A stretch of DNA of 50,715 nt, taken from contig CAZTIP010000001.1 in assembly GCA_964613185.1 (NCBI GenBank), positions 1 to 50,715 of the forward strand. Reading direction: 5' to 3'. The notes under the pieces were generated by a model. It had not been told where the DNA came from and made no database searches. It saw only the letters and a program-made list of their open reading frames with translations. Made by a program: the position numbers and the translations under genes. Of this stretch, positions 4,949 through 41,532 are shown one piece after another (position 1 is the first letter of the stretch; each line of letters starts with the position of its first letter). The DNA comes from Candidatus Woesearchaeota archaeon (GTDB lineage: Archaea; Nanobdellota; Nanobdellia; Pacearchaeales; GW2011-AR1).

Positions 4949-7900
4949 TTATTTTAATTTGAGATAATTGGAATCTGAGGTAATAGGGATTCCACTCATT
5001 TGTCCAGTCCATCCAAATCCTGCAGAAAATTCAGGAGGAAACTTATCATAACTTATCATCCTCCAACCAGGTGCATCATCAAATTTATCAGAGCATACAA
5101 ATACTTCTTCACCCCCTCGTGGCCATGGATCAATAGGATTATCGAAAGTATTTGTTGGAGAAGTATAAACAGGTATAGAGCCTTGGGCAATATAAATCAA
5201 GACATCTGAACTACAAGCATTTGAAAGGGTAGAAAAGGCATCGGAGTTAACTTTATCCTCTGATTCTCCAACAACCTCAATTTCAATTTCATCTTCAGCT
5301 CCAAAAAGTCCTTTCCAAAATCCTGGAACAATAACATTCACTAAAGTTTCATAACTCTTAACAAAATTATCGGAATCTTTCAGAAAATCGGAACCTTCAT
5401 TACAATCTTTACTCCCTAAATTCAAAGCAACTTGAACTGAAGAACCCTTAAAATAATTTGAAGATTGGCTAGATTCAATAACATTATCTCGATTAATCAA
5501 ATTCCAGTTAGCATTATCTAATGAAAAACTCCACTTCCCTGCATAACAATGATAATAAACCTTTTTTTCACTTCCATCTACACCTAATTCATAAGAAATC
5601 CCCTTAACTCCTTCTAAATCCTCTTCTTCCCCCCTTCCGTCTCCCGAACCAGAACTACTTTCATCACCTTCACTTTCATCACCCCCTTCATCCTCACCAC
5701 TATCTCCATCTTTACCACTCTCATCATCTTGACGTCCAGGATCAACAGAAATCTGTTTAGGAATTCCAATTTTTGAAAGAACAAGCCCCTGATACAGTTT
5801 AGCCTTCAACCAAAGAGCCTTTGCTTTATCCAAATTACTCCCAACACCTGGAGAATCTCCGGCACCAATAATAATATCAAGAGAATCCCTAACATTTTTC
5901 CACTCAGTATCATTAACAAAGCCGCCAACCTGCAAATCTTTAATTTCTTTTTCAAAAATTCTCAAATTTGCCTGAATTTCTTTAGGAGTCATAGAGCCCA
6001 TAGTAATTGAAGCAAAATTTTCTCCAAGAGATTTCAAATCCGCATCATTAGCAATAGCCAAAGTATTCAAACTATCTTTGACACTTTCAGTATCCAACCA
6101 ACATTTAAGATTTGTATTTCCACAATATCCAACTTCTTTCCAACGAGAAGTAGTTTCCGGGTTTCCCGAAGCACAAATCCTCACAAGTCCACGTTTAGAG
6201 ATTTCAGGGTCAATCGCATTACTTGCAATAGCACCCAAATTAAGCGAGAATGAAGGCACTGTCAAGGGTTTCCCAGAAATACATTCATTTTCTGTAGTTA
6301 TATCAGTTTGAGATGCCTGGTCGGAAACATAAGCATCTTGAACCATGTTAATTCCTAAATCAGTACTAACTTGTCTAAATCCGCACTCCTCTTGATTATC
6401 TATAACAACACAAAGTTCTTTGTAACCAGCAGGAGCAGTAAAATCTTTTGATTCATCTGCTGAAGTTCCTTTAGCGATATATCCTGTCTGAACTTCAATA
6501 GTAGGGTTGGTAGAATAATATCCTGAAGCAGGAGGATTCTTCAAATAAACCCTAAACTGCCTCCCCTTATCATTACCTGCATAAATATGGTAATAAACAT
6601 TATATTGAGAAGTTGCAGGGACGGTAACATCTGTAAAAGTATCCTCCGAAAAATAGGCAAAGAATTGTGGAGGGCTTTCAGGTTCCAATAAACTATCCAA
6701 AGCATCTGCAGAAGAAGGAACACTAGTTCCAATAAACGCCTTACAAAATTCACCTCCCACTTCTTCAATATTTCTAATTTGGAAAGCCCTAAAAGCATTA
6801 GGGGCATAAATATTCTTAAAATAACTAAAGCTTTTATCCAAATTATCAAAAGCATTTTGAATTAAAAGGTATTCCCCGCCTCCACGAGTTCTAGAATTCC
6901 CTGTAAAATCTTCAAGAATTTTAGGACCTAGGAATTTCAAAACAGGTGCAGCTTGTTTCCAGAAAAACTCGCATTTGTAAATAGATGTAATTTCATCACA
7001 AATTCCGACATGCTCTCCAGTTTCAAGACTTTTTTCCAAACAACTTACTTCTGATTTTAAAATAGATGTAAATGTATCAATTCCCGCATGAATTCCACTC
7101 AAACAAAGAGGTACTGCAATACCCTCCTTAGAATTTGGCAAACACATCAAAACACCTCCAACAATCCCCGTTTGAATAACATCTGCTACAGGCATTTTTC
7201 CCCCAAAATCGCATCGAGAACTTGGACAAACCACAGGGTCACAAGTGTTAAACATCAATTTACAATCGTCGGGACTCATAAAATCCTGACATTCAACTTC
7301 CCCTGTATTGCTGGCAGGATTTCCAAGTGCAATTGCATTTCCAAAAATATTAATATTTTTTTCACCATATTGACGAGAAGCCTCTCGAATTGCGCCACTT
7401 GCCTGAGTATAAAGAGATTTTACTTTTCGAGGACTAAGTTCTGGACAAGAAAGGAAATCTTCAACGACTCCAACACTATTGACATCAAAAGATTGACAAG
7501 AATCATCGGAAGTTCCCCTTTCCATCAAACCATTTTTCCCAATATTACAAATTTTAAAATAATTTACAGCCCCCGAATCAGCAAACCCTTTAGGTGAATC
7601 TTCTAAAAATGTCCCTCCAGAATTTGGAACCATCGCATACCACCCATCATTCAAATCAAAAGGAACTATCGCGGGAAGTCCTTTGCTTGATCCAGATTCA
7701 TAATAGTGAACTTTCGCAGTTCCCATAGGCCAAACATTTGAACAACTATTTGTAGATTGGGGTAAATTATTTGACCCAGAACCTAAACTTTTTCTCAATG
7801 CAAGATTTTTCAAAGAAATATCCAGCTCATCTATTGCAGTTTCATAAGGAATGCCCCCCTTACTTTCAAGCTTCTTAACTAAGATTGCTGCTCTCACTTG

Positions 7901-10180
7901 GGAACTTGAAGTTAAATCTTCGACAGCTAATTCCACCCCATCCACCTCTCGACTCCAACCTGCTCCAAGTTCTTTTTTCAAATCATTCACATAAGCTTCT
8001 TGATCGATAACCCTATCTTCCCCAAAAATCCCTCCATCCTTTTTATGTTTATCAATTGATTTATCCATCACTTCATTAACAGATTTTAAAGTATCTGCCA
8101 TTGTTTCAACATCCTTATCAATTTGTTCAGATAAATCGTTATAACATTCTGTCCTCGTCCGATACTCTTCATTTCCAATTGCAATATCGCAAGTTTGTTT
8201 ATACTTTGACATAACTTTTTGACGGGCTAATCCAACCCCACTAACTCCACTAGCAACATTTTTCAACATCAGGATACTTGAAGTGGCAAAACAAGCACCC
8301 TTCCACGCCTTAATAGTTTTACCCAACCTATCATTTACCTTTTCCCAACTTTCAATAGACTTCTCAATATTTTTCAATTTCTCTTCAGTTTTTTCAGTAG
8401 ATAGTTGGATTGCCCTTTTTTCTACCCCTACTTTAAATGTAAAGTCTGCTTCAGTTTTAGTTCGTTTAACTTCTGGAATCAAAGAAACATAAGCAAACAG
8501 TTCCATATCAATATTTTGAACATAAATATTCCTCCCTTCAAGAGCCCCAGATTCTCCTTCACGAATTTTAACAGAACGAGAGCCCCTCACATTAAGAGCG
8601 TTATCACTTCCGGTAAATGAAAATGTAACTTCTCCTGGAGAAATTTTAGTAACTATGAATTTCCCTCCATCAACAATTTCTTCAGAACCTTCAATTCTAT
8701 CTGAAAAAATTTCATTTCCAATTTTAAAGCTAACTTTTTTAGAATCACTTTTAAATTTACTAAACTCGCTAATACTCACTGAATAATATTTACCAGAAGC
8801 AATTATATTCCCATAAGCATTTCCAAAATCATAATCAGAAATTAAGTTGCTTTGTCTTCTTATAAGTTCCAAAGAAGAAGATTGTGGGAATGTATCCACA
8901 AATAAATCTAAAAGTTCTTTCTTAGTTTCTAATTGACCGTATTTTCCCGCAAGGTCAATTTGCTCAATAAGAGTTTCTTCAGCATAGGATTCGGATAATT
9001 CTCCCTTAGAAACTAAGGGATATTCATCAACCAATTCTTTAGTTACCCTTATAGTTTTATCAAAATAATTCTTAGGATCAGGAAGTTCTTCAAAAGAATT
9101 TTTCAAAGAATTTTCATCTTTCAGAGAGGTACTCAAAAGAAGGGAACCGCCACTACAATCTATTTTTACAGAACCAGATTCATCATCATTAACAGTTAAA
9201 GAACGCACAGTGCATCGATTATTCAAAATTCGGGAACCGGACCTAACCCAACTTTCTTCCCCATCAATATTCAAAAGCACCATATCTTCGGGAGAAACAA
9301 TTTTATTCAATTTAACTTTCATTCCAGCACGGCAATAGTATCCGGGAAAATAACTCATTTCACTAGTCTGCCCTTCTTGAAGATTAATTTTTCGAGAAAC
9401 TTGATCTTTAGAATGATAAATATCAATTTCTGCAGAATTTCTGTTTATATTCATCAATCGTAAATAACCCTTTCCTTTCCAAAATGCAGTTTTAGCATAA
9501 TCCTTTTCCCACTCATCTTCACTCATTATCGGCAAATAATAAGAAGATCTTCCAACCCCATAAGCTTCTTCAGCATCATAACGAATTGTTGCAGTCAAAT
9601 TTCCAGCAATCCAATCTTCCATATTTTTTTCAATTTTATTTCTCTTCAAAACAATCACCACATAACCAATATTGTTAATTGTGGGGTTTCCCAAAAGTGT
9701 TCGATAAGACCTTGTAGCTGCTCTCGCGGGATGAAAACTAATTCCAGAAACCCCTTCAGGATATTCTCCCTTAAAAGAAATAGATTTTATAGAAGAAACT
9801 TTAATCAAAGGATTAATTTGAATTGATTGCAATTGACAAAAAACTGGAACATTCTGTTCTTCCAATAAATCACTTCGAACAACACTTGGACTGCACCCTC
9901 CAGGAGGAATCATAACTAAAAAATCACTCGTAGCATTACATTGGTCGTTATTCATATTTTCAATAACTGGCCAATAAGTCCCAACATCAGAACCATATAA
10001 TTCATTAAAGTTAGGTTGATAGGTTTGCCAAGTGTTTGTAGCCCCTCCATAAAATCCTCCTGTATGCCCACTTGAAGAAACAATCCCAAAAGAGAAAGCA
10101 CCAATAAGTAAGACTCCGACAATTAAAAACAAATTCCTCACAACATTATTAATAACTATTTTTTCCCCCATTTTATTCAT
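4949..10180 (-). CDS. Giant secreted cysteine-rich protein (1743 aa) with acidic linker and SH3b-like C-terminal domain
   Basis: N-terminal hydrophobic signal, dense Cys clusters in the middle third, D/E/G/S linker near 5610-5745, C-terminal VYTSP..GEEVFV..GWRMISY..GW pattern; start overlaps the upstream stop. Function unknown. Confidence 0.7.
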   Translation of the reverse strand: MNKMGEKIVINNVVRNLFLIVGVLLIGAFSFGIVSSSGHTGGFYGGATNTWQTYQPNFNELYGSDVGTYWPVIENMNNDQCNATSDFLVMIPPGGCSPSVVRSDLLEEQNVPVFCQLQSIQINPLIKVSSIKSISFKGEYPEGVSGISFHPARAATRSYRTLLGNPTINNIGYVVIVLKRNKIEKNMEDWIAGNLTATIRYDAEEAYGVGRSSYYLPIMSEDEWEKDYAKTAFWKGKGYLRLMNINRNSAEIDIYHSKDQVSRKINLQEGQTSEMSYFPGYYCRAGMKVKLNKIVSPEDMVLLNIDGEESWVRSGSRILNNRCTVRSLTVNDDESGSVKIDCSGGSLLLSTSLKDENSLKNSFEELPDPKNYFDKTIRVTKELVDEYPLVSKGELSESYAEETLIEQIDLAGKYGQLETKKELLDLFVDTFPQSSSLELIRRQSNLISDYDFGNAYGNIIASGKYYSVSISEFSKFKSDSKKVSFKIGNEIFSDRIEGSEEIVDGGKFIVTKISPGEVTFSFTGSDNALNVRGSRSVKIREGESGALEGRNIYVQNIDMELFAYVSLIPEVKRTKTEADFTFKVGVEKRAIQLSTEKTEEKLKNIEKSIESWEKVNDRLGKTIKAWKGACFATSSILMLKNVASGVSGVGLARQKVMSKYKQTCDIAIGNEEYRTRTECYNDLSEQIDKDVETMADTLKSVNEVMDKSIDKHKKDGGIFGEDRVIDQEAYVNDLKKELGAGWSREVDGVELAVEDLTSSSQVRAAILVKKLESKGGIPYETAIDELDISLKNLALRKSLGSGSNNLPQSTNSCSNVWPMGTAKVHYYESGSSKGLPAIVPFDLNDGWYAMVPNSGGTFLEDSPKGFADSGAVNYFKICNIGKNGLMERGTSDDSCQSFDVNSVGVVEDFLSCPELSPRKVKSLYTQASGAIREASRQYGEKNINIFGNAIALGNPASNTGEVECQDFMSPDDCKLMFNTCDPVVCPSSRCDFGGKMPVADVIQTGIVGGVLMCLPNSKEGIAVPLCLSGIHAGIDTFTSILKSEVSCLEKSLETGEHVGICDEITSIYKCEFFWKQAAPVLKFLGPKILEDFTGNSRTRGGGEYLLIQNAFDNLDKSFSYFKNIYAPNAFRAFQIRNIEEVGGEFCKAFIGTSVPSSADALDSLLEPESPPQFFAYFSEDTFTDVTVPATSQYNVYYHIYAGNDKGRQFRVYLKNPPASGYYSTNPTIEVQTGYIAKGTSADESKDFTAPAGYKELCVVIDNQEECGFRQVSTDLGINMVQDAYVSDQASQTDITTENECISGKPLTVPSFSLNLGAIASNAIDPEISKRGLVRICASGNPETTSRWKEVGYCGNTNLKCWLDTESVKDSLNTLAIANDADLKSLGENFASITMGSMTPKEIQANLRIFEKEIKDLQVGGFVNDTEWKNVRDSLDIIIGAGDSPGVGSNLDKAKALWLKAKLYQGLVLSKIGIPKQISVDPGRQDDESGKDGDSGEDEGGDESEGDESSSGSGDGRGEEEDLEGVKGISYELGVDGSEKKVYYHCYAGKWSFSLDNANWNLINRDNVIESSQSSNYFKGSSVQVALNLGSKDCNEGSDFLKDSDNFVKSYETLVNVIVPGFWKGLFGAEDEIEIEVVGESEDKVNSDAFSTLSNACSSDVLIYIAQGSIPVYTSPTNTFDNPIDPWPRGGEEVFVCSDKFDDAPGWRMISYDKFPPEFSAGFGWTGQMSGIPITSDSNYLKLK

Positions 10181-12014
10181 AACTTATATAAATTAGTTCA
10201 TCCTCCACTCTTAAATAATTCTTCTGTAATTCATCCAAACTACCAGGCAAACTAAACATAGGTACATTGATATTTATTTCTGCCGAATCTTTCAATTGTC
10301 CTTCAGTAACATATTCATTAGTTCTCCCGCCTCCAACAACTGCAAAAGTAACTTCGGTTTCAGGAAGATTAACATCATAACATTTTTCCCGTTCCATACC
10401 TAAGAAGCCACCAATACCCGATTCAGGAACATCAACACATTTTCTTTCATTGATAGCGGGGAATTTAAGAGAAGTATCATCATATGCCTGAACAGAAACA
10501 TTATAATTTCCTTCAATCAAGTTTATCTTATCTGTTTCTGGATAAATTACCGTAGTGGAATAATCTTCAGAAGTAAAACTAATCACTGCCTGTTTGACAT
10601 CTTCCAATTCCAAGGATAGTTCATATTTTTTATTCAAAACAATATTTGCAATATCTTCTTCATTGGTGGAAATCTGAAACTTAGATTCCGCATATCCTTC
10701 TGCAGAAGCAAGAATAAACCCATTAACACAACTTGGAAATTCTCCTTCCAGAACAGCATCTCCACCAACATCTTTAGTTTCTCCAATATCACAAGTAGAT
10801 TTTAAACACTTAAATTGGATTCGAGATTCTACAGGATTTAAATCCCAATCATAAGTATGAACTGAAATTGGAGTTTCACGATATTTACAAACTTCAGATT
10901 CAATAGATTCCCCAGAAGAGGTAGGTAAAGCTTCCCTTGCCTGACTTTTAGAAATCACTACAGAAACAGGAAATTGAAAAATTTCTTCATCATCATAAAA
11001 CTGCATCAAGACAGGAAAATTAATATCATAAACAAAATGATAGGGAACATAACAAAATCCTAAAATCCCCATACCTTCTTGAAGACCTACAGGTTCAATA
11101 ACTTTATCTCCGTGCATTTCTATTCTCGTTGGCCAATCTGCAGAATAAAGAAAATTCAAATTCTCATCAACGTCAAATCCCGGGTCCGTAACAAAATAAT
11201 TCCTATCTTTTGAAGACAGACTAAAATAATCCCCTGAAAGTTTAATCGTAGGAATATTATCTATAAGCCCTCCAACAATATCTGAACGAATATCTTCTTC
11301 AACAAAAATTTGAGGTTCGCAAGTAACCATCGTATCTGTAACGGGTGCATAAAGCCTCATAACATCTAAGGCATATTTTTCCAAGAACATATCAGATTTC
11401 TCAAAATTATAAACCTCCATTGCCAAATCAAAAAATTTCCCAAGTTTACTATCTATTGAAAAAGAATGGCTATCTAAAACAACAGAATTATCTTCAAATG
11501 AAAGTGTTAATTTGCTTTCAACATCTAAAGAAACTTTATATTTATCTATTTCAACATCCACAAGCCCATTTTCCAAATAAATATCATAACCTGCCTCATC
11601 AAAATCAGAAAAATCACAATCAACAATTCTATCTCCAACATATTTTCCAAGTTCTTCTTCCATCCCACTTTTCGTAGGAACTTGTTCTTTCAAAAGATTA
11701 TTTCCAGAAACATACATCCAATATGGAATTCCGGAACCAAAAAAATCTAATTGAGAGGAAAAGGGCATGTATGCAGAACCTGGTTCAAACTCAGGAAGGG
11801 AAATATATCCTCCCTGTTCACCTAAAAGACCTGCCCCATAGGTTGCAGTATCTTCTAAACAAGAAAGATAATAATCATAAACTTCTTCAAATTCAGGAGG
11901 GACACTACTTCCAAAACCTCCACTAAATGAAAAATAAACCAAAATTCCCCCCACAATTAAAATAGCTAAAATAACAAAAATTGTAACCTGTCCCTTTTTT
12001 TCAAACCTATTCAT
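10173..12014 (-). CDS. Large pilin-like protein with class III signal peptide
   Basis: MNRFEKKG/QVTIFVILAILIVGG class III leader; GGTGA RBS before the ATG at 12014; beta-rich Cys-containing body. Confidence 0.75.
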   Translation of the reverse strand: MNRFEKKGQVTIFVILAILIVGGILVYFSFSGGFGSSVPPEFEEVYDYYLSCLEDTATYGAGLLGEQGGYISLPEFEPGSAYMPFSSQLDFFGSGIPYWMYVSGNNLLKEQVPTKSGMEEELGKYVGDRIVDCDFSDFDEAGYDIYLENGLVDVEIDKYKVSLDVESKLTLSFEDNSVVLDSHSFSIDSKLGKFFDLAMEVYNFEKSDMFLEKYALDVMRLYAPVTDTMVTCEPQIFVEEDIRSDIVGGLIDNIPTIKLSGDYFSLSSKDRNYFVTDPGFDVDENLNFLYSADWPTRIEMHGDKVIEPVGLQEGMGILGFCYVPYHFVYDINFPVLMQFYDDEEIFQFPVSVVISKSQAREALPTSSGESIESEVCKYRETPISVHTYDWDLNPVESRIQFKCLKSTCDIGETKDVGGDAVLEGEFPSCVNGFILASAEGYAESKFQISTNEEDIANIVLNKKYELSLELEDVKQAVISFTSEDYSTTVIYPETDKINLIEGNYNVSVQAYDDTSLKFPAINERKCVDVPESGIGGFLGMEREKCYDVNLPETEVTFAVVGGGRTNEYVTEGQLKDSAEININVPMFSLPGSLDELQKNYLRVEDELIYISYE

Positions 12015-12144
12015 TTTTCTCACCTTCTTTTTTTACTTTTTTCTTAATTAATTCAATGATTTCACTATTAATATCCTTTTGTATACTTTCTTTAAACTTT
12101 TCCCAAAGCTTTTCATCCTCAACTAATAACAAATATTTTTTCAT
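12007..12144 (-). CDS. Small ribbon-helix-helix-like protein (45 aa, not in ORF track)
   Basis: MKKYLLLVEDEKLWEKFKESIQKDINSEIIELIKKKVKKEGEKNE; GAGGT RBS; stop overlaps the next start (ATGAATAG); strand-helix-helix pattern. Confidence 0.65.
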   Translation of the reverse strand: MKKYLLLVEDEKLWEKFKESIQKDINSEIIELIKKKVKKEGEKNE

Positions 12145-12249: not shown

Positions 12250-12320
12250 TGGTCCTGCCAAGAATCGAACTTGGACTTCGTCGAAGTCAACGACACGTTC
12301 TACCACTAGACTACAGGACC
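12250..12320 (-). tRNA. tRNA-Val(GAC)
   Basis: Acceptor GGTCCTG/CAGGACC, anticodon arm TGTCG-TTGACTT-CGACG, T arm CCAAG-TTCGATT-CTTGG. Confidence 0.9.
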
Positions 12321-12346: not shown

Positions 12347-12631
12347 TTAAATCTTGCCACGCTTACTTTTCTTACCACCTTTAACACGTCCCCAATTTTC
12401 TTTAACAAGTTTAAATTTCAAATCACGCATATCAATCCCAGAAACATTACAAAAATCAATAAATAAACTTTCAGGCAATAATCTATCTCCAGAATAATAA
12501 TTCTTAAGAGTAGAATATTTAACATTAAAACCAAATTGTAAAAGCCCCCTCATAGAAGGAGCATTCATTCTAAATATTACTTCTTCAAAAAATTTCCTAT
12601 GACCATCTGCGAAAAATCTAACCCTCGCCAT
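12347..12631 (-). CDS. Small hypothetical protein, possible HTH DNA-binding domain
   Basis: 94-aa ORF with upstream TATA; YSTLKNYYSGDRLLP resembles an XRE-like recognition helix; NWGRVKGGK tail. Confidence 0.5.
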   Translation of the reverse strand: MARVRFFADGHRKFFEEVIFRMNAPSMRGLLQFGFNVKYSTLKNYYSGDRLLPESLFIDFCNVSGIDMRDLKFKLVKENWGRVKGGKKSKRGKI

Positions 12632-25182: not shown

Positions 25183-26283
25183 TTAAAGGCAAGTTTCATA
25201 AGTTTGTGTCCAACCACTAAAAGAACCAACCATAGAACATCCCCCGTTAGGATCATTATCACTCACAGAAACTCCTGAATTTGCCCAAATATTGCCACAA
25301 CTAGTTACTTCAACCATATCGCCACCCATTGTTCCAAACCTACAATCATTCCCAAAAATATTCTCTTCAACTCGGGCATTTGTAGAACTTGGAAGATTAA
25401 GATCATGAACTAAAATAATAGAAAGTGCACCACCATTAATCCAATTTTTCCTTATAATGAGATTCTCGATAAGTCCACTGAATTGTCTTGCAGATACCAC
25501 GCTAGCTCCCTCTTGGACGTCTAAATTATTACATTCTATGTATGCATCCCCCCCAGTAATCTGAATCGCATCGTTATGTGTCACTCCAAATATAACATCC
25601 AGATCATGGATCCAATTTCCTTCAACAATAGTCTTTTCTTCTCCTGAAAAAAGTTTAATAGCATCCACAGAATTAGAGAATTCATTTCCTAGAATTCTCA
25701 TCGAACTTCCAAGAATATGTGCAGAAATAGCATTTTTAAAAGTACTATGCTCTATCATAATCCCATCACTATAACCACTTGATGACTGAATACAATAATT
25801 AAAACCACTACAATCCATAAACACATTACTGATAGTTGTATCTGCAAAATTTGGACGAATCTCAACATACCCATTTATCTCTGAATTCGTCACAGTTACA
25901 TCATCAGCATTAATCCTAAGGTGACCAGTTATAATTGCATTACTAATTATTGTTCCAGGGGTTGTAATAGTCATAGGGCCAGTATAAGGGATTAATGGAC
26001 CTACAGGAGTTTTATATCCAGTATTACTCGGCCCAGGTTTTCCATTAGGACAATCATTTACAGGTGCAGGATTAGCACCACAATCGCTAGGACAACTGAG
26101 GAAATTTTCACCAACTCTAACATCACAAATTCCATTCCCGCAAGAAGTGTATTTTTGAAGAGGAGGAGATTTCTGAATAGAATCCCTATAATTAAAATAA
26201 ACAACCAACGCTATAACAACAACTGCAATGATTAAAAGAACTTTAGAAAGATTATTATTTTTAGGCATCATCTTCTTTTTCAT
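25183..26283 (-). CDS. Membrane-anchored right-handed beta-helix protein with Cys-rich spacer
   Basis: N-terminal TM, CGNGIC..E...CPSDC module, PGPSNTG..YTGPMTITTPG, repeated (I/V)EGNWI-like turns, HNDAIQ. Confidence 0.7.
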   Translation of the reverse strand: MKKKMMPKNNNLSKVLLIIAVVVIALVVYFNYRDSIQKSPPLQKYTSCGNGICDVRVGENFLSCPSDCGANPAPVNDCPNGKPGPSNTGYKTPVGPLIPYTGPMTITTPGTIISNAIITGHLRINADDVTVTNSEINGYVEIRPNFADTTISNVFMDCSGFNYCIQSSSGYSDGIMIEHSTFKNAISAHILGSSMRILGNEFSNSVDAIKLFSGEEKTIVEGNWIHDLDVIFGVTHNDAIQITGGDAYIECNNLDVQEGASVVSARQFSGLIENLIIRKNWINGGALSIILVHDLNLPSSTNARVEENIFGNDCRFGTMGGDMVEVTSCGNIWANSGVSVSDNDPNGGCSMVGSFSGWTQTYETCL

Positions 26284-27858: not shown

Positions 27859-28461
27859 ATGGCATTTACAAAAGAGGAGGCAGACAGTGTAAAAGAGCAT
27901 CTTTTAAAACAACTTACTAATTTTCCAGAAAATAAAAGGGTTGAGATAAGAAACCAAATAGAATCTATGAGTCCTGAACAAATAGAAAATTTTGTTAATC
28001 AAAATAATTTAAAACATCTTGGAAGTTCATGTATTTTTTGTTCGATTGTGGGTGGAAAAACAGACTCATTTCAAATTGCAGAAGATGAAAAAAATATTGC
28101 AATTCTTGAATTAACCCCGTTAAGTAAAGGACACACATTAATAGTTCCAAAAGAACATTCCAAAGAAGTCCATACATCTTCAAAAATATTTTCGGAAAAA
28201 ATCTCAAAAATACTTGAACAAAAATTTAATCCAAAAAAAATAAAGATAAATGAAATTGAAATCATGGAACATAAACTTTTAGAAATAATTCCATTATATG
28301 GTGATGAAACTGAAAGGAAACAAATTTCCGAAATAGAATTAAAAAATCTTCAAGAAGAAATTTTAGAAAACGAAGAATCCAAAAAAGAGGAAATTAAAAA
28401 AGAAAAAATTGAAGAAGTTCCAGAAATTGAAATTCCAATAATAAGTCCAAGAATTCCTTAA
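27859..28461 (+). CDS. HIT-family protein lacking the histidine triad
   Basis: CIFCSIV..P.SKGHTLIVPKEH present; HxHxH replaced by HKLLE. Confidence 0.75.
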   Translation: MAFTKEEADSVKEHLLKQLTNFPENKRVEIRNQIESMSPEQIENFVNQNNLKHLGSSCIFCSIVGGKTDSFQIAEDEKNIAILELTPLSKGHTLIVPKEHSKEVHTSSKIFSEKISKILEQKFNPKKIKINEIEIMEHKLLEIIPLYGDETERKQISEIELKNLQEEILENEESKKEEIKKEKIEEVPEIEIPIISPRIP

Positions 28462-29285
28462 AAGAAATTAATTAAAATTCCAAGAAATTTTGTTCTCAGG
28501 AAAAAATAAGCTAAAAATGCAATTAAAAATGCAGGGGCAAAAGGCAGGCCATCTTTAATTTTAACATTTTTTAAATTCTTCATCAAATCCACTTCTTCAG
28601 AAGATAAACCGTCCCAATCTGCGCGAATCAATTTTCCCTTAACACTAACATCGTTAACTAGCCAGTCTCCTTCACGAAGCTCCTTACCCGAAATAGATTT
28701 TATCATTGAAACTTTTTCAAGCCCTTTAGAGAAAATATAAATCAACGGGAGAAAAAGAAAAATTATTGAAAGCGGAATGAAAAACCATTTAACAAAACCG
28801 ATTATAAAAAACGCAACCCCTACCATAAAAAAATACATAAAAAAAGGATTCCTATATTGTTTTTTCATTTCCAAATTCACTTTTTTGAAATCTTTTGAAT
28901 AAAGAAAAAGTGAATAACCAAGCCCATAAACTGAACCAGAAATCATCAAAAGAAAAATAAATGTAAATATATTAGTAAAAGTTACATAATAACTTGCATC
29001 AAGAAAAAATAATGTCATCGCAAATAATAATTTTGCATCTCCCCCTGCAAAAACCCTCCCATAATAAAATAAATTGGCAAAAATAAACATCACCAATAAA
29101 AAAAATCCGGAATGAAGAACTAATAAAGGTGAATTATCAAAAATTGATTTGAAAATAACAAAAGACAAACTAGCAAAAACTAAAAATAAATTGAGCCAAT
29201 TATCAATTTCTCTTCGTTTCAAATCTTGAAAACTTGCAATCAAAATTCCTATAAGGAAAAGCCAAAAAAGAAATCCAGAAATCAT
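28458..29285 (-). CDS. Prepilin peptidase, family A24
   Basis: Catalytic FQDLKRREI and AGGDAKL, LREGD insert, C-terminal PFAPAF. Confidence 0.92.
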   Translation of the reverse strand: MISGFLFWLFLIGILIASFQDLKRREIDNWLNLFLVFASLSFVIFKSIFDNSPLLVLHSGFFLLVMFIFANLFYYGRVFAGGDAKLLFAMTLFFLDASYYVTFTNIFTFIFLLMISGSVYGLGYSLFLYSKDFKKVNLEMKKQYRNPFFMYFFMVGVAFFIIGFVKWFFIPLSIIFLFLPLIYIFSKGLEKVSMIKSISGKELREGDWLVNDVSVKGKLIRADWDGLSSEEVDLMKNLKNVKIKDGLPFAPAFLIAFLAYFFLRTKFLGILINFF

Positions 29286-29446
29286 CTTTTCTTATTTTTC
29301 TTATTTTTTTCTTTAACTCCTAAATCTTCGGAAGATTCTTTAACTTCAGCAGTACGAAATTTCCCACCACGTTTATATCCTCTGGCAAGTCGCTTTCGCT
29401 TCAAATCTTTCTTCGTTCTTCTTCTATCATTTCCGCCGTAATCCAT
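29282..29446 (-). CDS. Small basic protein (54 aa, not in ORF track) within the pilin operon
   Basis: MDYGGNDRRRTKKDLKRKRLARGYKRGGKFRT...; TAATG overlap upstream and ATGA overlap downstream. Confidence 0.7.
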   Translation of the reverse strand: MDYGGNDRRRTKKDLKRKRLARGYKRGGKFRTAEVKESSEDLGVKEKNKKNKKR

Positions 29447-30018
29447 TAAACTTTCTCCACAACATATTTATTATTTTCAAACTTTATTAAATATTCTCTT
29501 TCAAAATTATATGTAAGGTTAACAGGAAAATTTAGTTTAGCAGGTTTCCCCACAAGGTTAATTTTTTTCCCAACAATCCCTCTTGAAAAATAAAGTTCCC
29601 CATTTTTCACATTAAGCTTTCCTGAAGGATACAAAGTATTTTTAAAAAAATCGCCGCTATTTGCCCTAGCATTATCCTCGGCATCAGCCCCATTAACTGT
29701 CAAATCATTAAAAATAAATTCAGTCATTTCGCCCTCTTGTTTAAAATTATCTAAAAAAATATCTAAAAATTTTTCATTAAATTGTGTATTTGGAAAATTT
29801 CCTCCAGAAACACTCAAAGAATCTTCAATAAGCTGAACTTCACGAATCTCAAACATTTCCAAATCTGTTTGAATAGCAATTACTTCTCTTGGAGAAACTA
29901 AAAAATTAGGCGTTTCTTGCTGTTGAGAAAGATAAATTCCTATAGACATTCCACACAAAAACAATGTTAAAATAATGATATAAAGTCCAAAAAATTGTGC
30001 TCGATTATTTTTCATCAA
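29446..30018 (-). CDS. Pilin-like protein
   Basis: MMKNNRA/QFFGLYIIILTLFLCG class III-like leader. Confidence 0.65.
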   Translation of the reverse strand: MMKNNRAQFFGLYIIILTLFLCGMSIGIYLSQQQETPNFLVSPREVIAIQTDLEMFEIREVQLIEDSLSVSGGNFPNTQFNEKFLDIFLDNFKQEGEMTEFIFNDLTVNGADAEDNARANSGDFFKNTLYPSGKLNVKNGELYFSRGIVGKKINLVGKPAKLNFPVNLTYNFEREYLIKFENNKYVVEKV

Positions 30019-30308
30019 GAACCTCCTGTCCTCGCACGAACAAGACTTTGGTCATAAGGAATTCCGCGAACTAAAAAAAGTCGAAATTTAACTAATTTAA
30101 GATACCTATCACCATAAGAAAAATAACTTGAGGCAGAAATTTCTTTTAAATTCTGTTCTGAAGGTTCATAAACTTGGATACTTCCAGCAGTATTGCTAAC
30201 TTTATTAATTATGGTAGATGCAAGTGCAAATAAGGTCAAAATAATAATTACTGCAATCGTAACAAAAAATAAAACGGCAATACTCCCAATAACCCCTTTC
30301 TTATTCAT
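30015..30308 (-). CDS. Pilin-like protein
   Basis: MNKKG/VIGSIAVLFFVTIAVIII. Confidence 0.7.
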   Translation of the reverse strand: MNKKGVIGSIAVLFFVTIAVIIILTLFALASTIINKVSNTAGSIQVYEPSEQNLKEISASSYFSYGDRYLKLVKFRLFLVRGIPYDQSLVRARTGGS

Positions 30309-30813
30309 GGTTAACAAAAACCTCCAAATCGATTATTCCTTCAAACAAATTATTTGAAGAATTAATAAAAACCGGATAAGTTTCCCTAAAACTTCCAGGT
30401 TCATATTTTTTCAAATTATTGACTGCAGAGGGCTTATTTTTAAAAATTTCCTTAATCCACGACGCCCCCGAATCTCCTTGATAAAAATTATCCAAATTTT
30501 TTGGAGGATTACTTTGATTAATTACTGCATTTACAAAAAATCTTTCCCCATCAAAATTTTCGAAACCACAATAAAATAATAAATTATTTTTACTAGTTGA
30601 AGGGTAATCCTCCAAATATAAAATTCCTGCAGGGGCTAAACAATCAACAACTTCCCTCGCCATAATTTGTGCTTCAACATCCCTAACATCAATATGATGT
30701 TCATAAAAAATTGAGAAAACTCCCAAAACAATAAATGCAATAAAACTAACAATAATAATTCGATAAATCATCATAATACTTTCTCCTGCAGCCCCCTTCT
30801 TTCCAAAAATCAT
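30301..30813 (-). CDS. Pilin-like protein
   Basis: MIFGKKG/AAGESIMMIYRIIIVSFIAFIVLG. Confidence 0.7.
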   Translation of the reverse strand: MIFGKKGAAGESIMMIYRIIIVSFIAFIVLGVFSIFYEHHIDVRDVEAQIMAREVVDCLAPAGILYLEDYPSTSKNNLLFYCGFENFDGERFFVNAVINQSNPPKNLDNFYQGDSGASWIKEIFKNKPSAVNNLKKYEPGSFRETYPVFINSSNNLFEGIIDLEVFVNHE

Positions 30814-31163
30814 TCAACAATCACCACAAATTTATCAATCTCTTCAATAGCCGAAACAGAATATTTAGTAAAATAAGGGTAGCCTTTCAAAGAGGAAAGT
30901 CCAGAAACCGCAATAAAAATTCTTCCTTCTTTGATTTCAACTTTTTGAACAATCCCATAATAATTATCTCTGGAAATAGTAAAATTCATCCCAGGAACTG
31001 CAGAATCAATCAACAATGCCATTTGTTTTTCTAAAACTTGTTGACTGACTCCTCGAGAATTTATTTTACTAGAAACTGCCATAAAAAATATCGCAAAAAT
31101 CAAACCAATTAAAATTATCTGAACAACGACCTGATTTAATATCCCCCCTCGCTTATCTCTCAT
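30810..31163 (-). CDS. Pilin-like protein
   Basis: MRDKRG/GILNQVVVQIILIGLIFAIFF; TATA box at leaderless spacing from the ATG at 31163. Confidence 0.72.
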   Translation of the reverse strand: MRDKRGGILNQVVVQIILIGLIFAIFFMAVSSKINSRGVSQQVLEKQMALLIDSAVPGMNFTISRDNYYGIVQKVEIKEGRIFIAVSGLSSLKGYPYFTKYSVSAIEEIDKFVVIVE

Positions 31164-31192
31164 AAAATAATTCACAAAACAAACTTAATAAA
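31161..31192 (-). repeat. 32-bp promoter duplication, copy 1
   Basis: CATAAAATAATTCACAAAACAAACTTAATAAA identical to 31823-31854; contains minus-strand TTTATTAA and the ATG. Confidence 0.9.
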
Positions 31193-31197
31193 ACTAT

Positions 31198-31308
31198 TTA
31201 TAAAAATTTTCCAATAGCCATTTTAATCGCAAAACCAACAGCAATAAGAATTGCAAGATAAATAATCCATTTTATCGTTTCATCAACAGTCTGGGCTTTT
31301 TTATTCAT
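31198..31308 (-). CDS. Mini-pilin (36 aa, not in ORF track)
   Basis: MNKKA/QTVDETIKWIIYLAILIAVGFAIKMAIGKFL; Glu at +5; starts immediately after the upstream stop. Confidence 0.75.
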   Translation of the reverse strand: MNKKAQTVDETIKWIIYLAILIAVGFAIKMAIGKFL

Positions 31309-31309
31309 T

Positions 31310-31825: not shown

Positions 31826-31854
31826 AAAATAATTCACAAAACAAACTTAATAAA
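31823..31854 (-). repeat. 32-bp promoter duplication, copy 2
   Basis: Identical to 31161-31192. Confidence 0.9.
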
Positions 31855-31907
31855 TCTAACCAATTATAAAAACAAAACTTTATATATTTGTTAGTCATTC
31901 TAAAGTC

Positions 31908-34463: not shown

Positions 34464-34511
34464 AAAATATAAACCTATAAAATTGATATAACAATAAACC
34501 AAACCATCCAC

Positions 34512-36245: not shown

Positions 36246-36338
36246 TTTTATTTTTCACCACCATCTCATTATTAAAAAGTGTTAAACATTCAACACACTA
36301 AATAAAATAAAAAAGACATTAATAAAGATTTCTAAAAT

Positions 36339-36704
36339 CTAACAAGTAATTGCTGGGCAAGGAGAGACAGCCATATTTGAATATTCACCCGTACCATTAA
36401 TCCAATCATTACAGGTTCCATTGGAATGCGTAATAATTGCTGAAGGGTCTGAAGAGTCAACATACTTTACGACTCTTTTTTGAATACAGAATCCTGTTTT
36501 ATCTTGAGTTGAACAAGCAAGATCACAAGATTGTTTTACAGTATTTACATTAGCTTCTCCGCCACCTAAATTAGTAATTTTATTCCACATATTATTCCAC
36601 CCTGTAGAAAATCCAAAAATCAAAAAAACTAAAACTGCAATTCCTAAAACAATCAAAATAATTGTTCCAAGAGTCAAGTTCTGTCCCTTTTTATTCATCA
36701 CCAT
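36339..36704 (-). CDS. Pilin (candidate major pilin)
   Basis: MNKKG/QNLTLGTIILIVLGIAVLVFLIFGF; six Cys in a small head; own TATA box. Confidence 0.8.
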   Translation of the reverse strand: MVMNKKGQNLTLGTIILIVLGIAVLVFLIFGFSTGWNNMWNKITNLGGGEANVNTVKQSCDLACSTQDKTGFCIQKRVVKYVDSSDPSAIITHSNGTCNDWINGTGEYSNMAVSPCPAITC

Positions 36705-36761
36705 AAACAAACTATAACTCTTTCCCTTATAAAACTTTCTATAAAAAAATTTAAGGCAAAG

Positions 36762-39085: not shown

Positions 39086-39119
39086 AGTTACTTCCAGTAA
39101 CTCAAAGTAACTTTATAAA
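39086..39119 (-). promoter_or_regulatory. Internal promoter with three phased AGTWACT operator boxes
   Basis: AGTTACT 39086-39092, AGTAACT 39096-39102, AGTAACT 39106-39112; minus-strand TTTATAAA at 39112-39119. Confidence 0.7.
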
Positions 39120-41383
39120 TCTAATCTCTTCGCCTCTTTTTCAAGCCATTTTTTCCATTCAGGAAAAACACGTTCACTAGTTGGCAACCCAATTTCTTCA
39201 TTAACCCCATTAGAAATCTGGTGAAATGCATTATTTGATTTTACGGTAAATTCTGCCTCCAACAATTCAGGTAAATTCATTTTTTCAGAAAAAGAAACGC
39301 TTTCTTCTTTTATTTTTTGTCTTAAAACAACATTGTCCCAAACAGCATCCCAATTTCCTGCCCATCCACGAACATTGGAAGCAATATCTTTCATAATCTC
39401 AGAATTACCATTAATTAAATCATCAGAAGGTTTTATTTTATCTTCCTTAACATCATACTTCATCAAATCAATAAATCCTCCTTCTGCCAGAGGGTCTTTT
39501 TCCCAGTGTTTTCTAACTTCCGAAATTTGTAAAACTCTTCTCCAAGATTTCAATCCATCTGGAGATTTAATAGGGTTTGCAACCACAATTAAATCTGTTG
39601 CTTTAAATGAAGTAATGGGGACTTGCAAATCATTAACAACTCTATCAAAAACGGAATAGGGGCTCCCTCCATGAATAGTTCCTGCAACTACATTTGCCAA
39701 AGCACCAACCCTCATTGCCTCATAAAGTGCCTTCGCTTCAGAAGAACGAATTTCACCCACAATCAGAGAGGAATCCCCTAAACGAAGACTTGCGCGAATT
39801 CCTTCTTCTGCAGAAACTTCAGTAGATTCTCCCGCCAATGCACTCCTAACTTTCATAGACAAAATATCGTAATCCAACCGTCTCATTTCTGCAACAGGCA
39901 ATTCCAAAGTATCTTCAATAGTCAGGATTCTATGACTCGGCATAATCTCCAAAAGTAAACTTCCTAAAAGAGAAGTTTTTCCAGAGGAACGAGTTCCTGC
40001 AACTAATAAAGTTCTAGCTCCATCAATCATAAAACTTAACAAGCCAGCCCCTAAACTATCAATCATTTTATTTTTAACAAACAGAGGGAGTGTCCAAGGA
40101 TTACTCCTATGTCGTCTCAAGGTATATGCAATCCCACTTGCAGAAAGAGGTTGTTGAATAATTGCAATTCTCGCACTCATATTTTCAAGATTTAAGCTGG
40201 TGTCTAAAACAGGGTTTGCCTCATCAAGAGCACGACCTGAAGACATCCTAAATTTTGCAGCCCAAGAATCTGCATCTTCCTGAGAAGGGATTAAATTAGA
40301 AACACATTCTCCAAAATCATTATGTTTAACAAAAATCGGAGAAAGAGAAACAGGGGCATTAACCATAATATCTTGCAAATTTTCATCTTTCAATAAAACT
40401 TCCAAAACCCCAAAACCGATAGTATGTCTTACCAAAATAGTTGAAAGTTTGATTAAGTTTTCATAGTTAAGTGAAATATTTTTATTAGCAGCTAAATCTT
40501 TAAGCAAATCTCGAGCAACATTCAAAAAAATTTGCCTGGTTCTTTCAGAATCATTAAATTCTTGTTCAGTTGGACGATGTTCAATTAAAACATTTCTTGC
40601 CAAATTAAGTAAAAGATGATAATCATCATTCAAAAGATATTCTGGAGGAGTCAAATGATAAACCAATTTAGATTTATTTGGTCTCTTAAAAATTGTGACT
40701 AGGCTAGTATCAGGACCTTCAGAAATAGTATATTGTTTAATTATTTCTGCATCTGAGGGAATTTTAGCAACCATTCTTGTAAATGTGAAATTTGGCATAA
40801 TATCTGCCCTAAAAACTTCAGAATAAATATTCCTATCTCCCGTAGAATAAACATCAAAACTTAATTTTAATTTTTTAATAATTTCAAGTTCTTCAAATTT
40901 TCCAACAAGATTTTCCAATAAATTAACATATGCTACATTGTCTTTCCCTTTTTCCCTTAAAGCACGTTGTTCAAATAATGAATTTTTCAAATTACGATAA
41001 GCTTTCAAAGGGTCTTGTTTCAAAAGTCCATTAAAAATAAAATTCAAAAAAGAAAACGCCTCGTGATATGAACTCCCCAATAAAGAAAGATTTTCAACAG
41101 ACGTTATTTTTTCCTGATTAACAAAAAATTCATAAAGATTTGAAATTTCAATAAGCATCTTAACTTGGGGGAAATCATGAGAATAATTTCTTTGTTGAAC
41201 AAATACAATCCTACTAACATTTGGATCTTCTTTCAGGTTATCTAAAGTCCTTGCCATAACTTCTCCAGAATCTATCATAGAAGGAACAAAGGGTGCTCCA
41301 AGATAATTAATATACATTACATTTTCTCCACTTTCACGAATAATCTCGTAAGAATATAATGGGGATCCTGCCTTAAACATCAT
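39113..41383 (-). CDS. Type II/IV secretion (pilus assembly) ATPase with long N-terminal extension
   Basis: Walker A AGTRSSGKTS, Asp box TIEDTLEL, Walker B LIVGEIRSSEA, His box GTIHG. Confidence 0.93.
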   Translation of the reverse strand: MMFKAGSPLYSYEIIRESGENVMYINYLGAPFVPSMIDSGEVMARTLDNLKEDPNVSRIVFVQQRNYSHDFPQVKMLIEISNLYEFFVNQEKITSVENLSLLGSSYHEAFSFLNFIFNGLLKQDPLKAYRNLKNSLFEQRALREKGKDNVAYVNLLENLVGKFEELEIIKKLKLSFDVYSTGDRNIYSEVFRADIMPNFTFTRMVAKIPSDAEIIKQYTISEGPDTSLVTIFKRPNKSKLVYHLTPPEYLLNDDYHLLLNLARNVLIEHRPTEQEFNDSERTRQIFLNVARDLLKDLAANKNISLNYENLIKLSTILVRHTIGFGVLEVLLKDENLQDIMVNAPVSLSPIFVKHNDFGECVSNLIPSQEDADSWAAKFRMSSGRALDEANPVLDTSLNLENMSARIAIIQQPLSASGIAYTLRRHRSNPWTLPLFVKNKMIDSLGAGLLSFMIDGARTLLVAGTRSSGKTSLLGSLLLEIMPSHRILTIEDTLELPVAEMRRLDYDILSMKVRSALAGESTEVSAEEGIRASLRLGDSSLIVGEIRSSEAKALYEAMRVGALANVVAGTIHGGSPYSVFDRVVNDLQVPITSFKATDLIVVANPIKSPDGLKSWRRVLQISEVRKHWEKDPLAEGGFIDLMKYDVKEDKIKPSDDLINGNSEIMKDIASNVRGWAGNWDAVWDNVVLRQKIKEESVSFSEKMNLPELLEAEFTVKSNNAFHQISNGVNEEIGLPTSERVFPEWKKWLEKEAKRLDL

Positions 41384-41532
41384 TTTCAAAATTCATAAAT
41401 GACAAATCAAAACCAATTTTTATTTTATTCCTCATCTTTTCCTCCGCTAAGATAAATAAAAACCCATATTAAAATTTATGTATATATTAAAATAACCAAA
41501 ATTATTATAAACTTCTTAAAACATAAAATCCT

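Follow-up and report, generated by a model that had tools for sequence, protein, structure and literature searches.

The window, i.e., the whole 50,715-nt stretch of DNA that was analysed, carries on its minus strand, as is the case for all features located by coordinates here, a giant gene, P0001 (4949..10180, stop codon included), whose frame reads through without an internal stop and encodes a protein of 1743 aa. Immediately upstream lies the gene of a partner protein, P0002 (10173..12023, 616 aa), the stop codon of which overlaps the P0001 start by 8 nt, and the start of which is overlapped in turn by a conserved ORF of 45 aa (12007..12144), matched in 49 of 65 loci. The product of this ORF resembles ribbon-helix-helix proteins by eye only (Arc, E 0.12, not significant) and has no match in PHROGs, which also returned nothing for P0003. 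The neighbourhood of the giant gene is a housekeeping one, with TFB and S8e on one side and L44e and S3Ae on the other; the 3' end of P0001 is followed by a tRNA-Leu gene and by a convergent TFB gene, and TFB is downstream in most of the loci that reach that far.

A type IV filament-like locus is present in the same window. It includes the gene of a type IV leader (prepilin) peptidase (28458..29285; Peptidase_A24, E 4.2e-9), the expected processing enzyme for class III signals, and that of a type II/IV secretion ATPase (39113..41389; T2SSE, E 7e-15). A candidate pilin of 123 aa (36339..36710), which lacks a family match and has KKGQ and a hydrophobic segment at its N-terminus, as P0002 does, and several small KKGQ-type proteins are encoded in the window as well. 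Pfam recognised neither a platform protein nor a retraction ATPase. P0001 and P0002 lie outside this locus, its nearest gene (that of the prepilin peptidase) being ~16 kb away from P0002 and ~18 kb away from the giant gene.

Organization of the P0001 protein

The N-terminus of P0001 (residues 1-38; 10067..10180) comprises a basic n-region and a hydrophobic segment (~16-38; Kyte-Doolittle 19-residue mean of up to 2.56), followed by the small residues VSSSG. Judging from hydropathy, it is a signal peptide or an N-terminal anchor, and it looks like the former, of Sec type. Both the 1743-aa frame and the N-terminal signal had been proposed in the first-pass annotation of this DNA, and both are borne out, the latter at the level of sequence. 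The signal is followed by an N-terminal domain A delimited by its conservation (39-350; 9131..10066), in which residues 97-182 form the predicted contact surface for P0002, and by a middle region (351-825; 7706..9130) that has variable insertions at two sites (about 345-400 and 770-830) and contains the conserved motif KGWKGACFATS. The amphipathic or coiled-coil stretch pointed out previously (residues 609-639) is indeed there: it is part of a putative amphipathic helix segment (595-639; 8264..8398) of the middle region, where the helical hydrophobic moment in windows 595-625 reaches 0.47-0.63, as compared with a 95th percentile of 0.46 for the whole protein.

The conserved core (826-1470; 5771..7705), defined by alignment and modelling, contains 17 Cys residues that are invariant across 49 aligned family members and includes a Cys-rich, partly hydrophobic domain (958-1215; 6536..7309), modelled as helical with pLDDT below 50. 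Cys accounts for 34 of the 1743 residues (2.0%), with 14 of them within residues 878-1070, so the description of the protein as Cys-rich holds for the core, to which the Cys motifs quoted originally map (980-994 and 1061-1074), and not for P0001 as a whole. An acidic Gly/Ser linker (1479-1524; 5609..5746), comprising 20 D/E, 12 G and 7 S per 46 residues, was found where it had been reported (about 5610-5745).

Searches of Pfam (E <= 0.01), NCBIfam, PHROGs and PDB sequences with P0001 gave no match and hence no family for the scaffold, and a search of ESM Atlas with the whole protein gave no usable match. The core and the tip were modelled separately, because a joint 52-row alignment misplaced fragments and put unrelated tails over the tip. 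The core model has a mean pLDDT of 64, with the most conserved stretch, 958-1165, below 50; it comprises a beta-sandwich (~1168-1330) and a three-helix bundle (~1396-1470) that closes the scaffold. Fold searches, in which the low-pLDDT parts of this model are barely tested, yielded only generic beta-sandwich and helical-bundle matches (Foldseek: best match with E 6.6e-4 and TM 0.16; VIA-align: Z of at most 9.3, to a three-helix bundle and a macroglobulin-like sandwich). When PDB was searched with a profile of the family alignment, the coiled middle region matched only influenza HA2, at non-significant E values (0.1-0.47), which we take as compositional.

The tip of P0001 is nearly an orphan, with 3 matches in 1.84 billion representatives. 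It is composed of module T1 (1524-1611; 5348..5611), common to P0004 and to fragment P0123, an inter-module segment, PGFWKGLFGAEDEIEIEVVGE (1612-1646; 5243..5347), common to P0004 and P0125, and module T2 (1647-1743; 4952..5242), shared at 51% identity with fragment P0124 only. The sequence of P0004, which is 76% identical, stops as given after T1, and in P0123 this module stands behind a metzincin-like HExxH motif. Contigs from four seawater runs contained only fragments identical to the window, one of them over a part of the tip. The GC3 of the tip (0.19-0.21) is like that of the scaffold (0.22), and so is its GC content, which gives no sign of a recent import of the cassette.

T2 had been read in the first-pass annotation as an SH3b domain. 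The letters on which this reading was based are in place: VYTSP, GEEVFV and GWRMISY are found at residues 1671-1711 (window positions 5048-5170), in the motif order VYTSP ... GEEVFV ... GWRMISY ... GW that makes T2 similar to SH3b domains (Pfam SH3_3, PF08239). The SH3b identity itself did not find support in homology searches. When the tip (220 aa) and T2 (97 aa) were compared with Pfam at E <= 10, no SH3 family was revealed, and PF08239 had 0 matches in the genome translated in six frames, as compared with matches in 6 of 14 control genomes. The hhalign comparison of T2 (2 sequences, Neff 1.3) with 10 SH3_3 domains of the same phylum gave a probability of 0.8% (E 0.071, 20 columns) and has little power because the query profile is very shallow; it pairs GEEVFVC..GWRMISY of T2 with GDFVEVC..WLRIKD of a true SH3_3 of a relative. 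The AlphaFold2 model of the tip (5-row alignment; mean pLDDT of 42.8, no residue as high as 70) is too poor to judge the fold, which makes the result of the relevant Foldseek search (nothing at E <= 0.001) meaningless, and 50,697 phage records searched with T2 by tblastn returned matches at E = 6 only. In a language-model search, T2 was placed at 0.94-0.95 near small clusters; for 7 of the 30 matches, 12% of the cluster members carry SH3_3, and for one match, 92% do, which is a lead only. The motif pattern and the language-model neighbourhood suggest that T2 may represent a highly diverged binding domain of SH3b type. In P0001, Pfam detected no domain directed at cell walls, either with the whole protein or with the tip, and hence the contact with a walled host or prey cell that had been proposed for this protein is drawn from its relatives only.

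Scaffold family and its C-terminal tails

At least 846 proteins of DPANN, which are tiny archaea with a symbiotic lifestyle, share the scaffold of P0001 (residues ~30-1470; E <= 0.001 among 7998 candidates scored), and therefore P0001 is a genuine gene rather than a frame open by chance. Among the matches listed, 119 relatives show about 45-60% identity to the scaffold; residues ~51-350, 401-775 and 826-1450 are each covered in at least 100 of them, while the coverage drops to 32 relatives at 1476-1500 and to 0 past 1650. The boundary of the scaffold in relatives corresponds to residue ~1467-1471 of P0001. The gene is single-copy in the 574-kb genome, and its counterparts were found in 25 of the 27 genomes sampled from the source family and in 10/10, 12/12 and 14/15 genomes of three others. 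With P0001 as a query, 287 of 401 genomes sampled from the phylum gave no match to the core; in distant families of the phylum, recognisable similarity is confined to residues about 1020-1215.

The tails that follow the scaffold range from 6 to 1258 aa, and 111 of them fall into 62 unrelated groups. The tabulated C-termini of homologs are thus far from invariant, and the earlier proposal of a conserved scaffold with an exchangeable tip is supported. The kinds of tips it had anticipated, namely SLT, amidase and true SH3b, are also present in relatives. Among the 119 listed relatives, 14 carry SLT (PF01464) and others carry PF07486, PF01520, PF04748 or PF07759; one relative has Amidase_2 and three SH3_3 in its tail, and another has SH3_3, below the cut-off, at its extreme C-terminus. 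The 69 complete tails of species-representative genomes comprise four with SLT, one with Phage_lysozyme2, one with LysM, two with Trypsin_2, one with TSP_3, two with sub-threshold matches only, and 58 without any domain match. At the species level, 80 of 504 loci were retained. While the recognisable tails appear, by their domains, to be mostly peptidoglycan-directed (SLT, phage-tail lysozyme, LysM, amidase with SH3b) or trypsin-like, the share of those without a recognisable domain makes peptidoglycan targeting a minority trait. The low-complexity linker is not general either: D, E, G, S, T, P, N and Q make up at least 60% of the first 60 residues in 29 of 110 tails.

In the combination of a catalytic domain with an SH3b or LysM binding domain, the tails of certain relatives (Amidase_2 with three SH3_3, SLT, Phage_lysozyme2, LysM) are similar to modular cell-wall lysins, such as endolysins and tail lysins of phages or autolysins of bacteria. 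However, in the P0001 family these cassettes are appended to a non-enzymatic scaffold of ~1450 aa, and P0001 itself is without a detectable lysin cassette.

Certain members of this family seem to have been described under another name. Large SLT-domain proteins of Pacearchaeota and Woesearchaeota were published in 2021 (fam00969; PMC8204110), and a 'large lytic murein transglycosylase' of Woesearchaeota appears in the accessible text of PMC9723730. From the description of fam00969 in the part of PMC8204110 available to us, where the taxa and the size class (up to ~3000 aa) match, we infer that it is the family of P0001. Consistent with this, relatives of P0001 with PF01464 are named 'transglycosylase SLT domain-containing protein [Candidatus Pacearchaeota archaeon]' by NCBI, and SLT-carrying relatives, P0053, P0054 and P0061 among others, are homologous to P0001 over the full body (1485-1502 bits). 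P0001 differs in that Pfam finds no family, and so no SLT (GH23) domain, in it. As SLT was found on 14 of the 119 listed relatives and on 4 of the 69 species-level tails, the published name fits a minority cassette and not the family, and should be corrected accordingly. The available text of PMC8204110 makes no mention of a class III partner gene or of tail exchange, and in those parts of the literature that were accessible we found no description of the class III partner, of the modular design or of tails other than SLT.

Partner gene P0002 and its predicted complex with P0001

The N-terminus of P0002, MNRFEKKGQ-VTIFVILAILIVGGILVYF, follows the pattern of class III signals (a short basic leader, a small residue at -1 and ~20 hydrophobic residues), the signal being EKKGQ followed by VTIFVILAILIVGG. 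The motif [KR]-[GAS]-Q with ~20 hydrophobic residues behind it is present in all 58 partner N-termini listed and also in distant partners. P0002 contains 10 invariant Cys and is about 57-66% identical to its relatives among the matches listed; searches of Pfam, NCBIfam and PHROGs assigned it to 0 families, with no match to a pilin or class III model.

A homologue of P0002 is encoded directly upstream of the giant gene, on the same strand, in 65 of the 65 loci whose upstream sequence exceeds 5200 nt, which confirms the linkage to a class III signal gene expected originally. The two genes overlap by 4 nt in 39 of 59 measured junctions, and the pair is kept in distant families in which the giants share only residues ~1020-1215.

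Structure prediction for P0002 with the N-terminal domain of the giant gave a median score of 0.61 (0.00, 0.61 and 0.67 in individual runs), while the best of three controls scored 0.00. In the benchmark, 116 of 157 solved complexes attained this mark, as did 2 of 215 mismatched pairs; these counts apply only approximately in this case, since the prediction was run on our own alignments. At least 48% of contacts are common to the runs, and the partner has a pLDDT of at least 62. In the giant, conservation of at least 90% is seen for 17 of the 28 interface residues vs. 82 of 287 residues elsewhere (Fisher p 0.0008), while the interface of P0002 is not enriched in conserved residues (9/30 vs. 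196/557, p 0.78). P0002 is thus predicted to bind the N-terminal domain of the giant at residues ~97-182. The idea that the giant is deployed together with the pilin-like protein is supported by the invariable linkage of their genes, and their binding has support from the model.

Possible role of the P0001-P0002 pair

We consider it somewhat probable (roughly 55%) that P0001 serves as the large subunit of a cell-surface module made up of two proteins and inherited vertically in Pacearchaeota and Woesearchaeota-like Nanoarchaeota. The swapped far end of the proteins of this family probably serves to grip or breach another cell. P0001, which seems to have no anchor of its own, would be exported by means of its Sec-type signal and would dock with its conserved N-terminal domain (~97-182) on the globular part of P0002, as the model suggests. 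The pilin-type N-terminus of P0002 would be cut by the prepilin peptidase encoded in the same genome, and the cleaved P0002 would keep both proteins attached to the membrane or to a type IV filament's end. The scaffold of ~1450 aa, presumably rich in disulfides given its 17 invariant core Cys, may act as a stalk with a universally conserved Cys-rich helical domain. The lineage-specific C-terminal cassette past the linker would determine which target of the other cell is bound or cut: SLT, phage-tail lysozyme, LysM, amidase with SH3b or a trypsin-like protease in relatives, and the orphan two-module tip (T1 and T2) in P0001.

Possibly, though we hold this variant only tentatively, a type IV filament is capped by P0002, acting as a large minor pilin, and the giant is carried by it in a manner analogous to PilY1/PilC, which would mean that the variable tip is thrust at another cell and pulled back from it. 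The class III motif of all listed partners, the predicted interface, and the window's genes of a prepilin peptidase, an ATPase and several small proteins of KKGQ type are consistent with this arrangement. The position of the pair outside the filament locus argues against it, as does the lack of a retraction ATPase and a platform protein among the Pfam matches; however, the minor-pilin/PilY1 operon of bacteria is likewise separate from the machinery genes. The analogy to PilY1/PilC is functional and concerns a large, Sec-exported non-pilin protein paired with a pilin-like one, encoded apart from the machinery and having a role in contact with cells or surfaces. P0001 shows no homology to PilY1, and no similarity to PilY1/PilC in sequence or fold was detected; moreover, its partner is one protein of 616 aa instead of a set of small minor pilins, and its display on a filament is a proposal. 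According to the accessible text of PMC13705601, archaeal type IV filament loci frequently code for large adhesin-like proteins, but class III signals are also found on non-filament surface proteins, e.g., sugar-binding proteins of Sulfolobus. An extended version, which we regard as rather unlikely, is that the pair forms an archaeal 'harpoon', a type IV filament tip complex common to Pacearchaeota, Woesearchaeota and their kin, in which the swappable end first binds or cuts the wall and the partly hydrophobic helical domain (~1020-1215) in the constant stalk, stabilised by its Cys, acts on the membrane of the partner cell. If this were true, it would be a machine for attaching to and opening bacterial or archaeal hosts.

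The strict conservation of the giant gene and its housekeeping neighbourhood would also fit a structural role in the envelope. P0002 would then be the anchor and the giant the canopy of the cell's own surface layer, as in the SlaB/SlaA pair of Sulfolobales, with the tails as decorations. The single copy of the gene, its presence in nearly all sampled genomes of four families, the tight coupling of the two genes in an operon and the many invariant Cys of both proteins, expected of extracellular structural proteins, are in line with such a role. We nevertheless find it unlikely. S-layer proteins usually diverge fast, which is at odds with the degree of identity found in the scaffold and in P0002, tails with peptidoglycan-directed enzymatic or binding domains are hard to square with a lattice of the self-envelope, and the core was missed in most of the sampled genomes of the phylum with P0001 as a query. 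Anchors of SlaB type, in addition, use a C-terminal helix rather than a class III signal.

It is highly improbable that the giant is a polymorphic lysin or toxin released into the medium or a target, with P0002 needed for export only: while its putative Sec-type signal with no anchor of its own, its lytic domains in relatives and, as in CdiA and Rhs, its constant body with a sharp boundary and a hypervariable C-terminal end would suit such a protein, P0001 is a vertically inherited core gene with one copy per genome, with tRNA-Leu and the conserved convergent TFB instead of an immunity-like gene 3' of its tail, no orphan tail cassettes nearby, no demarcating motif family recognised, and a tip that resembles the scaffold in GC3.

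Pacearchaeota and Woesearchaeota rank with the most abundant of the uncultured archaea, and, to our knowledge, nobody knows their hosts or their mode of attachment. The two-protein surface module proposed here would provide a concrete candidate for a contact apparatus, nearly universal in the families in which it is present. Its tails could serve as an indicator of host type over hundreds of genomes, where cassettes directed at peptidoglycan would suggest bacterial partners, and orphan tips like that of P0001 something else. The predicted interface between P0002 and the giant can be probed with recombinant fragments, without cultivation.

Scaffold and tails of the giant protein family

The source genome is small and AT-rich (574 kb, 6 contigs, 90.8% complete), and its archaeal nature is indicated by TFIIB, ribosomal proteins S8e, L44e and S3Ae, and GINS, which surround the locus. 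The ORF 4949-10180 (minus strand) yields a stop-free translation of 1743 residues, the giant protein P0001. Translation, hydropathy, hydrophobic moment and residue positions recovered every sequence feature that the first-pass annotation had listed for it: an N-terminus of basic residues, a hydrophobic stretch (16-38) and small residues (VSSSG); a segment (609-639) within a strongly amphipathic helix, with hydrophobic moments of 0.47-0.63 in windows 595-625 vs. the protein's 95th percentile of 0.46; 34 cysteines, 14 of them clustered at residues 878-1070; an acidic Gly/Ser linker (residues 1479-1524, window 5609-5746); and the motifs VYTSP, GEEVFV and GWRMISY at residues 1671-1711. Searches of Pfam, NCBIfam, PHROGs and PDB sequences with P0001 gave no matches.

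A word-seeded HMMER search identified 846 relatives at E <= 0.001 among 7998 scored candidates, and those with names all belong to Pacearchaeota, Woesearchaeota, Nanoarchaeota or "archaeon" bins. Two short contigs encoding family members (L010 and L033; 3.6 and 1.6 kb) are filed under the bacterial bins Omnitrophota and Isosphaeraceae, labels that are most simply explained as binning errors. Lengths of the 119 relatives listed range from 1551 to 2970 aa, and BLAST coverage of P0001 by these relatives is near complete at residues ~51-350, 401-775 and 826-1450, then falls to 32 relatives at 1476-1500, 15 at 1501-1525 and none past 1650. The scaffold ends in the relatives at the equivalent of P0001 residue ~1467-1471, leaving a tail of 6-1258 residues. 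By all-against-all BLAST, 111 tails fall into 62 groups, of which the biggest has 30 members; the tail of P0001 groups with that of its relative P0004 only. The proposed architecture of a constant scaffold with a changing far end is thus borne out by the collapse of coverage after ~1470 and by the 62 tail groups. Two internal sites also vary, with more than 50 extra residues in 52 of 105 relatives at P0001 345-400 and in 96 of 102 at 770-830. In the core, 17 cysteines are invariant among 49 aligned sequences; giants of distant families in the phylum have only residues ~1020-1215 in common with P0001.

A model of the core (residues 826-1470), built from 49 sequences, reaches a mean pLDDT of 64. 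Its confident parts are strands at the N-terminus, a beta-sandwich (~1168-1330) and, at the end, a three-helix bundle (~1396-1470); pLDDT is below 50 at 958-1165, the most conserved stretch, which is Cys-rich, partly hydrophobic and helical. Foldseek and VIA-align returned only generic sandwich and bundle matches to this model.

Precomputed Pfam labels assign SLT (PF01464) to 14 of the 119 relatives listed, and a SleB-type hydrolase, Amidase_3, a polysaccharide deacetylase family, DUF1615 and TPR to single members. In 69 complete tails cut from 80 species-representative loci and scanned with Pfam at E <= 0.001, we found SLT in four, Trypsin_2 in two, and Phage_lysozyme2, LysM and TSP_3 in one each; two tails gave sub-threshold matches only and 58 no Pfam family. 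SH3_3 is present in 9 of 301 genomes of the phylum and lies within giant-family frames in two of those nine. One such member, of 2472 aa (L099:5472-12887, plus strand), carries three SH3_3 domains in its tail and Amidase_2 inserted at residues 483-652, which corresponds to the internal variable site at P0001 345-400; exchange of cassettes is thus not confined to a single site. In the other member the SH3_3 match is at the extreme C-terminus and below the cutoff (22.1 bits vs. 27). The prediction that relatives carry cell-wall domains therefore holds for SLT, amidase and SH3_3, and recognisable cell-wall cassettes are a minority of tails in the family.

In the passages of two papers that bear on this family, Vigneron et al. 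(2022, PMC9723730) describe a "large lytic murein transglycosylase" from Woesearchaeota, and Castelle et al. (PMC8204110) propose attachment to bacterial walls. To judge by its body, P0001 is probably a member of the published large SLT-domain family, but the domain that gave the family its name is absent; the family is already known though uncharacterised, and P0001 is a new variant within it. In passages of the literature on Pace-/Woesearchaeota or DPANN transglycosylases, pilins, surface and hosts, we found no mention of the partner gene, which supplementary tables might list as a co-occurring family, nor, those tables aside, of the sharp variation boundary, the tail range or the conserved genomic position.

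The tip of P0001

The tip (residues 1524-1743) comprises the module T1 (1524-1611), an inter-module segment (1612-1646) and the module T2 (1647-1743). HMMER found three matches to it in 1.84 billion representatives: P0123, a 167-aa fragment of an incomplete protein with T1 directly behind a metzincin-like motif, HELLHGFIFNH (Pfam Peptidase_M10 at E 0.016 only); a fragment ending in T2 (51% identity); and a match of 34 residues within the inter-module segment. P0004, the closest full-length relative, shares T1 and the inter-module segment, and its recorded sequence, possibly incomplete, stops before T2. Since the fragments carry T1 or T2 alone and P0004 ends before T2, the two modules occur independently.

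T2 had been read as SH3b-like. The motif letters are present, but no SH3 family matched T2 in Pfam at E <= 10, PF08239 had no match in six frames of the genome, and a comparison by hhalign with ten genuine SH3_3 domains from the phylum returned a probability of 0.8%, aligning GEEVFVC..GWRMISY with GDFVEVC..WLRIKD. The AlphaFold2 model of the tip is unusable (mean pLDDT 42.8), and Foldseek found no matches with it. Among 30 language-model neighbours of T2 (scores 0.94-0.95), seven are in clusters with SH3_3 on 12% of members and one is in a cluster with SH3_3 on 92%. We consider an SH3b domain a tentative assignment for T2, somewhat doubtful on balance.

The inter-module segment contains GLFGA (residues 1633-1637, window 5270-5284), which is also the first five letters of the influenza HA2 fusion peptide. 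HA2 matches in a PDB profile search with the family alignment covered the coiled middle region and were non-significant, and we regard the likeness as a coincidence.

The pilin-like partner and its proposed role in surface display

The gene at 10173-12023 encodes P0002, a protein of 616 residues starting with MNRFEKKGQ-VTIFVILAILIVGGILVYF, and its stop overlaps the start of the giant gene. Its relatives, at least 1693 in number and all without a name, are very constant in length (~610 aa) and 57-88% identical; ten cysteines are invariant. Of 596 pattern matches, 504 encoded a P0001 relative, and the core alignment served to fetch 80 of these loci. In 65 of the 80 the upstream sequence exceeds 5200 nt, and every one of these 65 has a P0002 homologue immediately before the giant on the same strand. 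The two genes overlap by 4 nt at 39 of the 59 junctions measured. Each of the 58 partner N-termini listed has [KR]-[GAS]-Q ahead of a hydrophobic stretch, by sequence the pattern of a class III, pilin-type signal. Giants of distant families in the phylum are likewise directly preceded by a protein of 620-720 aa that has the same signal and is 22-29% identical to P0002. The suggested pilin-like link is borne out.

A 45-aa ORF (MKKYLLLVEDEKLWEKF...; 12007-12144, minus strand) overlaps the P0002 start and, by tblastn, precedes P0002 in 49 of the same 65 loci; by eye it looks like a ribbon-helix-helix regulator, its best family match being Arc at E 0.12. Further upstream, P0003, a basic 94-aa protein with no family match (12347-12631, minus strand), is conserved in many loci, and in the window tRNA-Val(GAC) (12250-12320, minus strand) separates it from the operon. 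The wider gene order, with S3Ae and L44e on one side and TFB and S8e on the other, is widely kept.

Complex prediction with P0002 residues 30-616 and giant residues 36-350, each with a separate alignment, gave scores of 0.00, 0.61 and 0.67 (median 0.61), vs. 0.00 for the best of three controls; the score mark, attained by 116 of 157 solved complexes vs. 2 of 215 mismatched pairs, is only rough for these custom alignments. Contacts agreed between runs by at least 48%, and partner pLDDT was at least 62. On the giant, the predicted interface spans residues 97-182, where conservation of 90% or more is seen at 17 of 28 contact residues vs. 82 of 287 residues elsewhere (p 0.0008); contacts on P0002 are not enriched in conserved residues (9 of 30 vs. 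196 of 557, p 0.78). The models support, short of demonstrating, binding of P0002 to the giant's N-terminal domain.

Most likely, the giant would be exported by Sec, and its N-terminal domain would dock to P0002, which would keep the giant on the cell; the lineage-specific cassette at the giant's far end would be presented for contact with another cell. Bacterial PilY1 sits on minor pilins, and P0002 may by analogy cap a type IV filament. It may instead be a plain membrane anchor, as passages of one study (PMC13705601) describe class III signals that anchor some non-filament archaeal surface proteins in the membrane, or may form part of a surface lattice. That the giant is instead a released polymorphic toxin is unlikely, because no immunity-like gene follows its tail, its gene is single-copy and vertically inherited, and GC3 of the tip is the same as that of the scaffold.

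Other putative surface-related genes of the window

A type IV filament-like locus (28458-44515) encodes a Peptidase_A24 prepilin peptidase, a T2SSE ATPase and KKG/KRG-type proteins, including five small ones at 29446-31837 and proteins of 530 and 123 aa with KKG(S/Q) N-termini. In its middle, an 851-aa protein (31908-34463, plus strand) carries in two stretches the T2SSG pseudopilin domain (E 3.8e-19), a bacterial-type domain (type II secretion pseudopilin G) in an archaeal protein. The locus also encodes a 719-aa protein without an assigned family, possibly the platform, and three small membrane proteins (42654-44168). Outside it, a 366-aa protein (25183-26283, minus strand) with an N-terminal membrane helix, the motif CGNGICD...CPSDCG and no Pfam family may be another Cys-rich surface protein.
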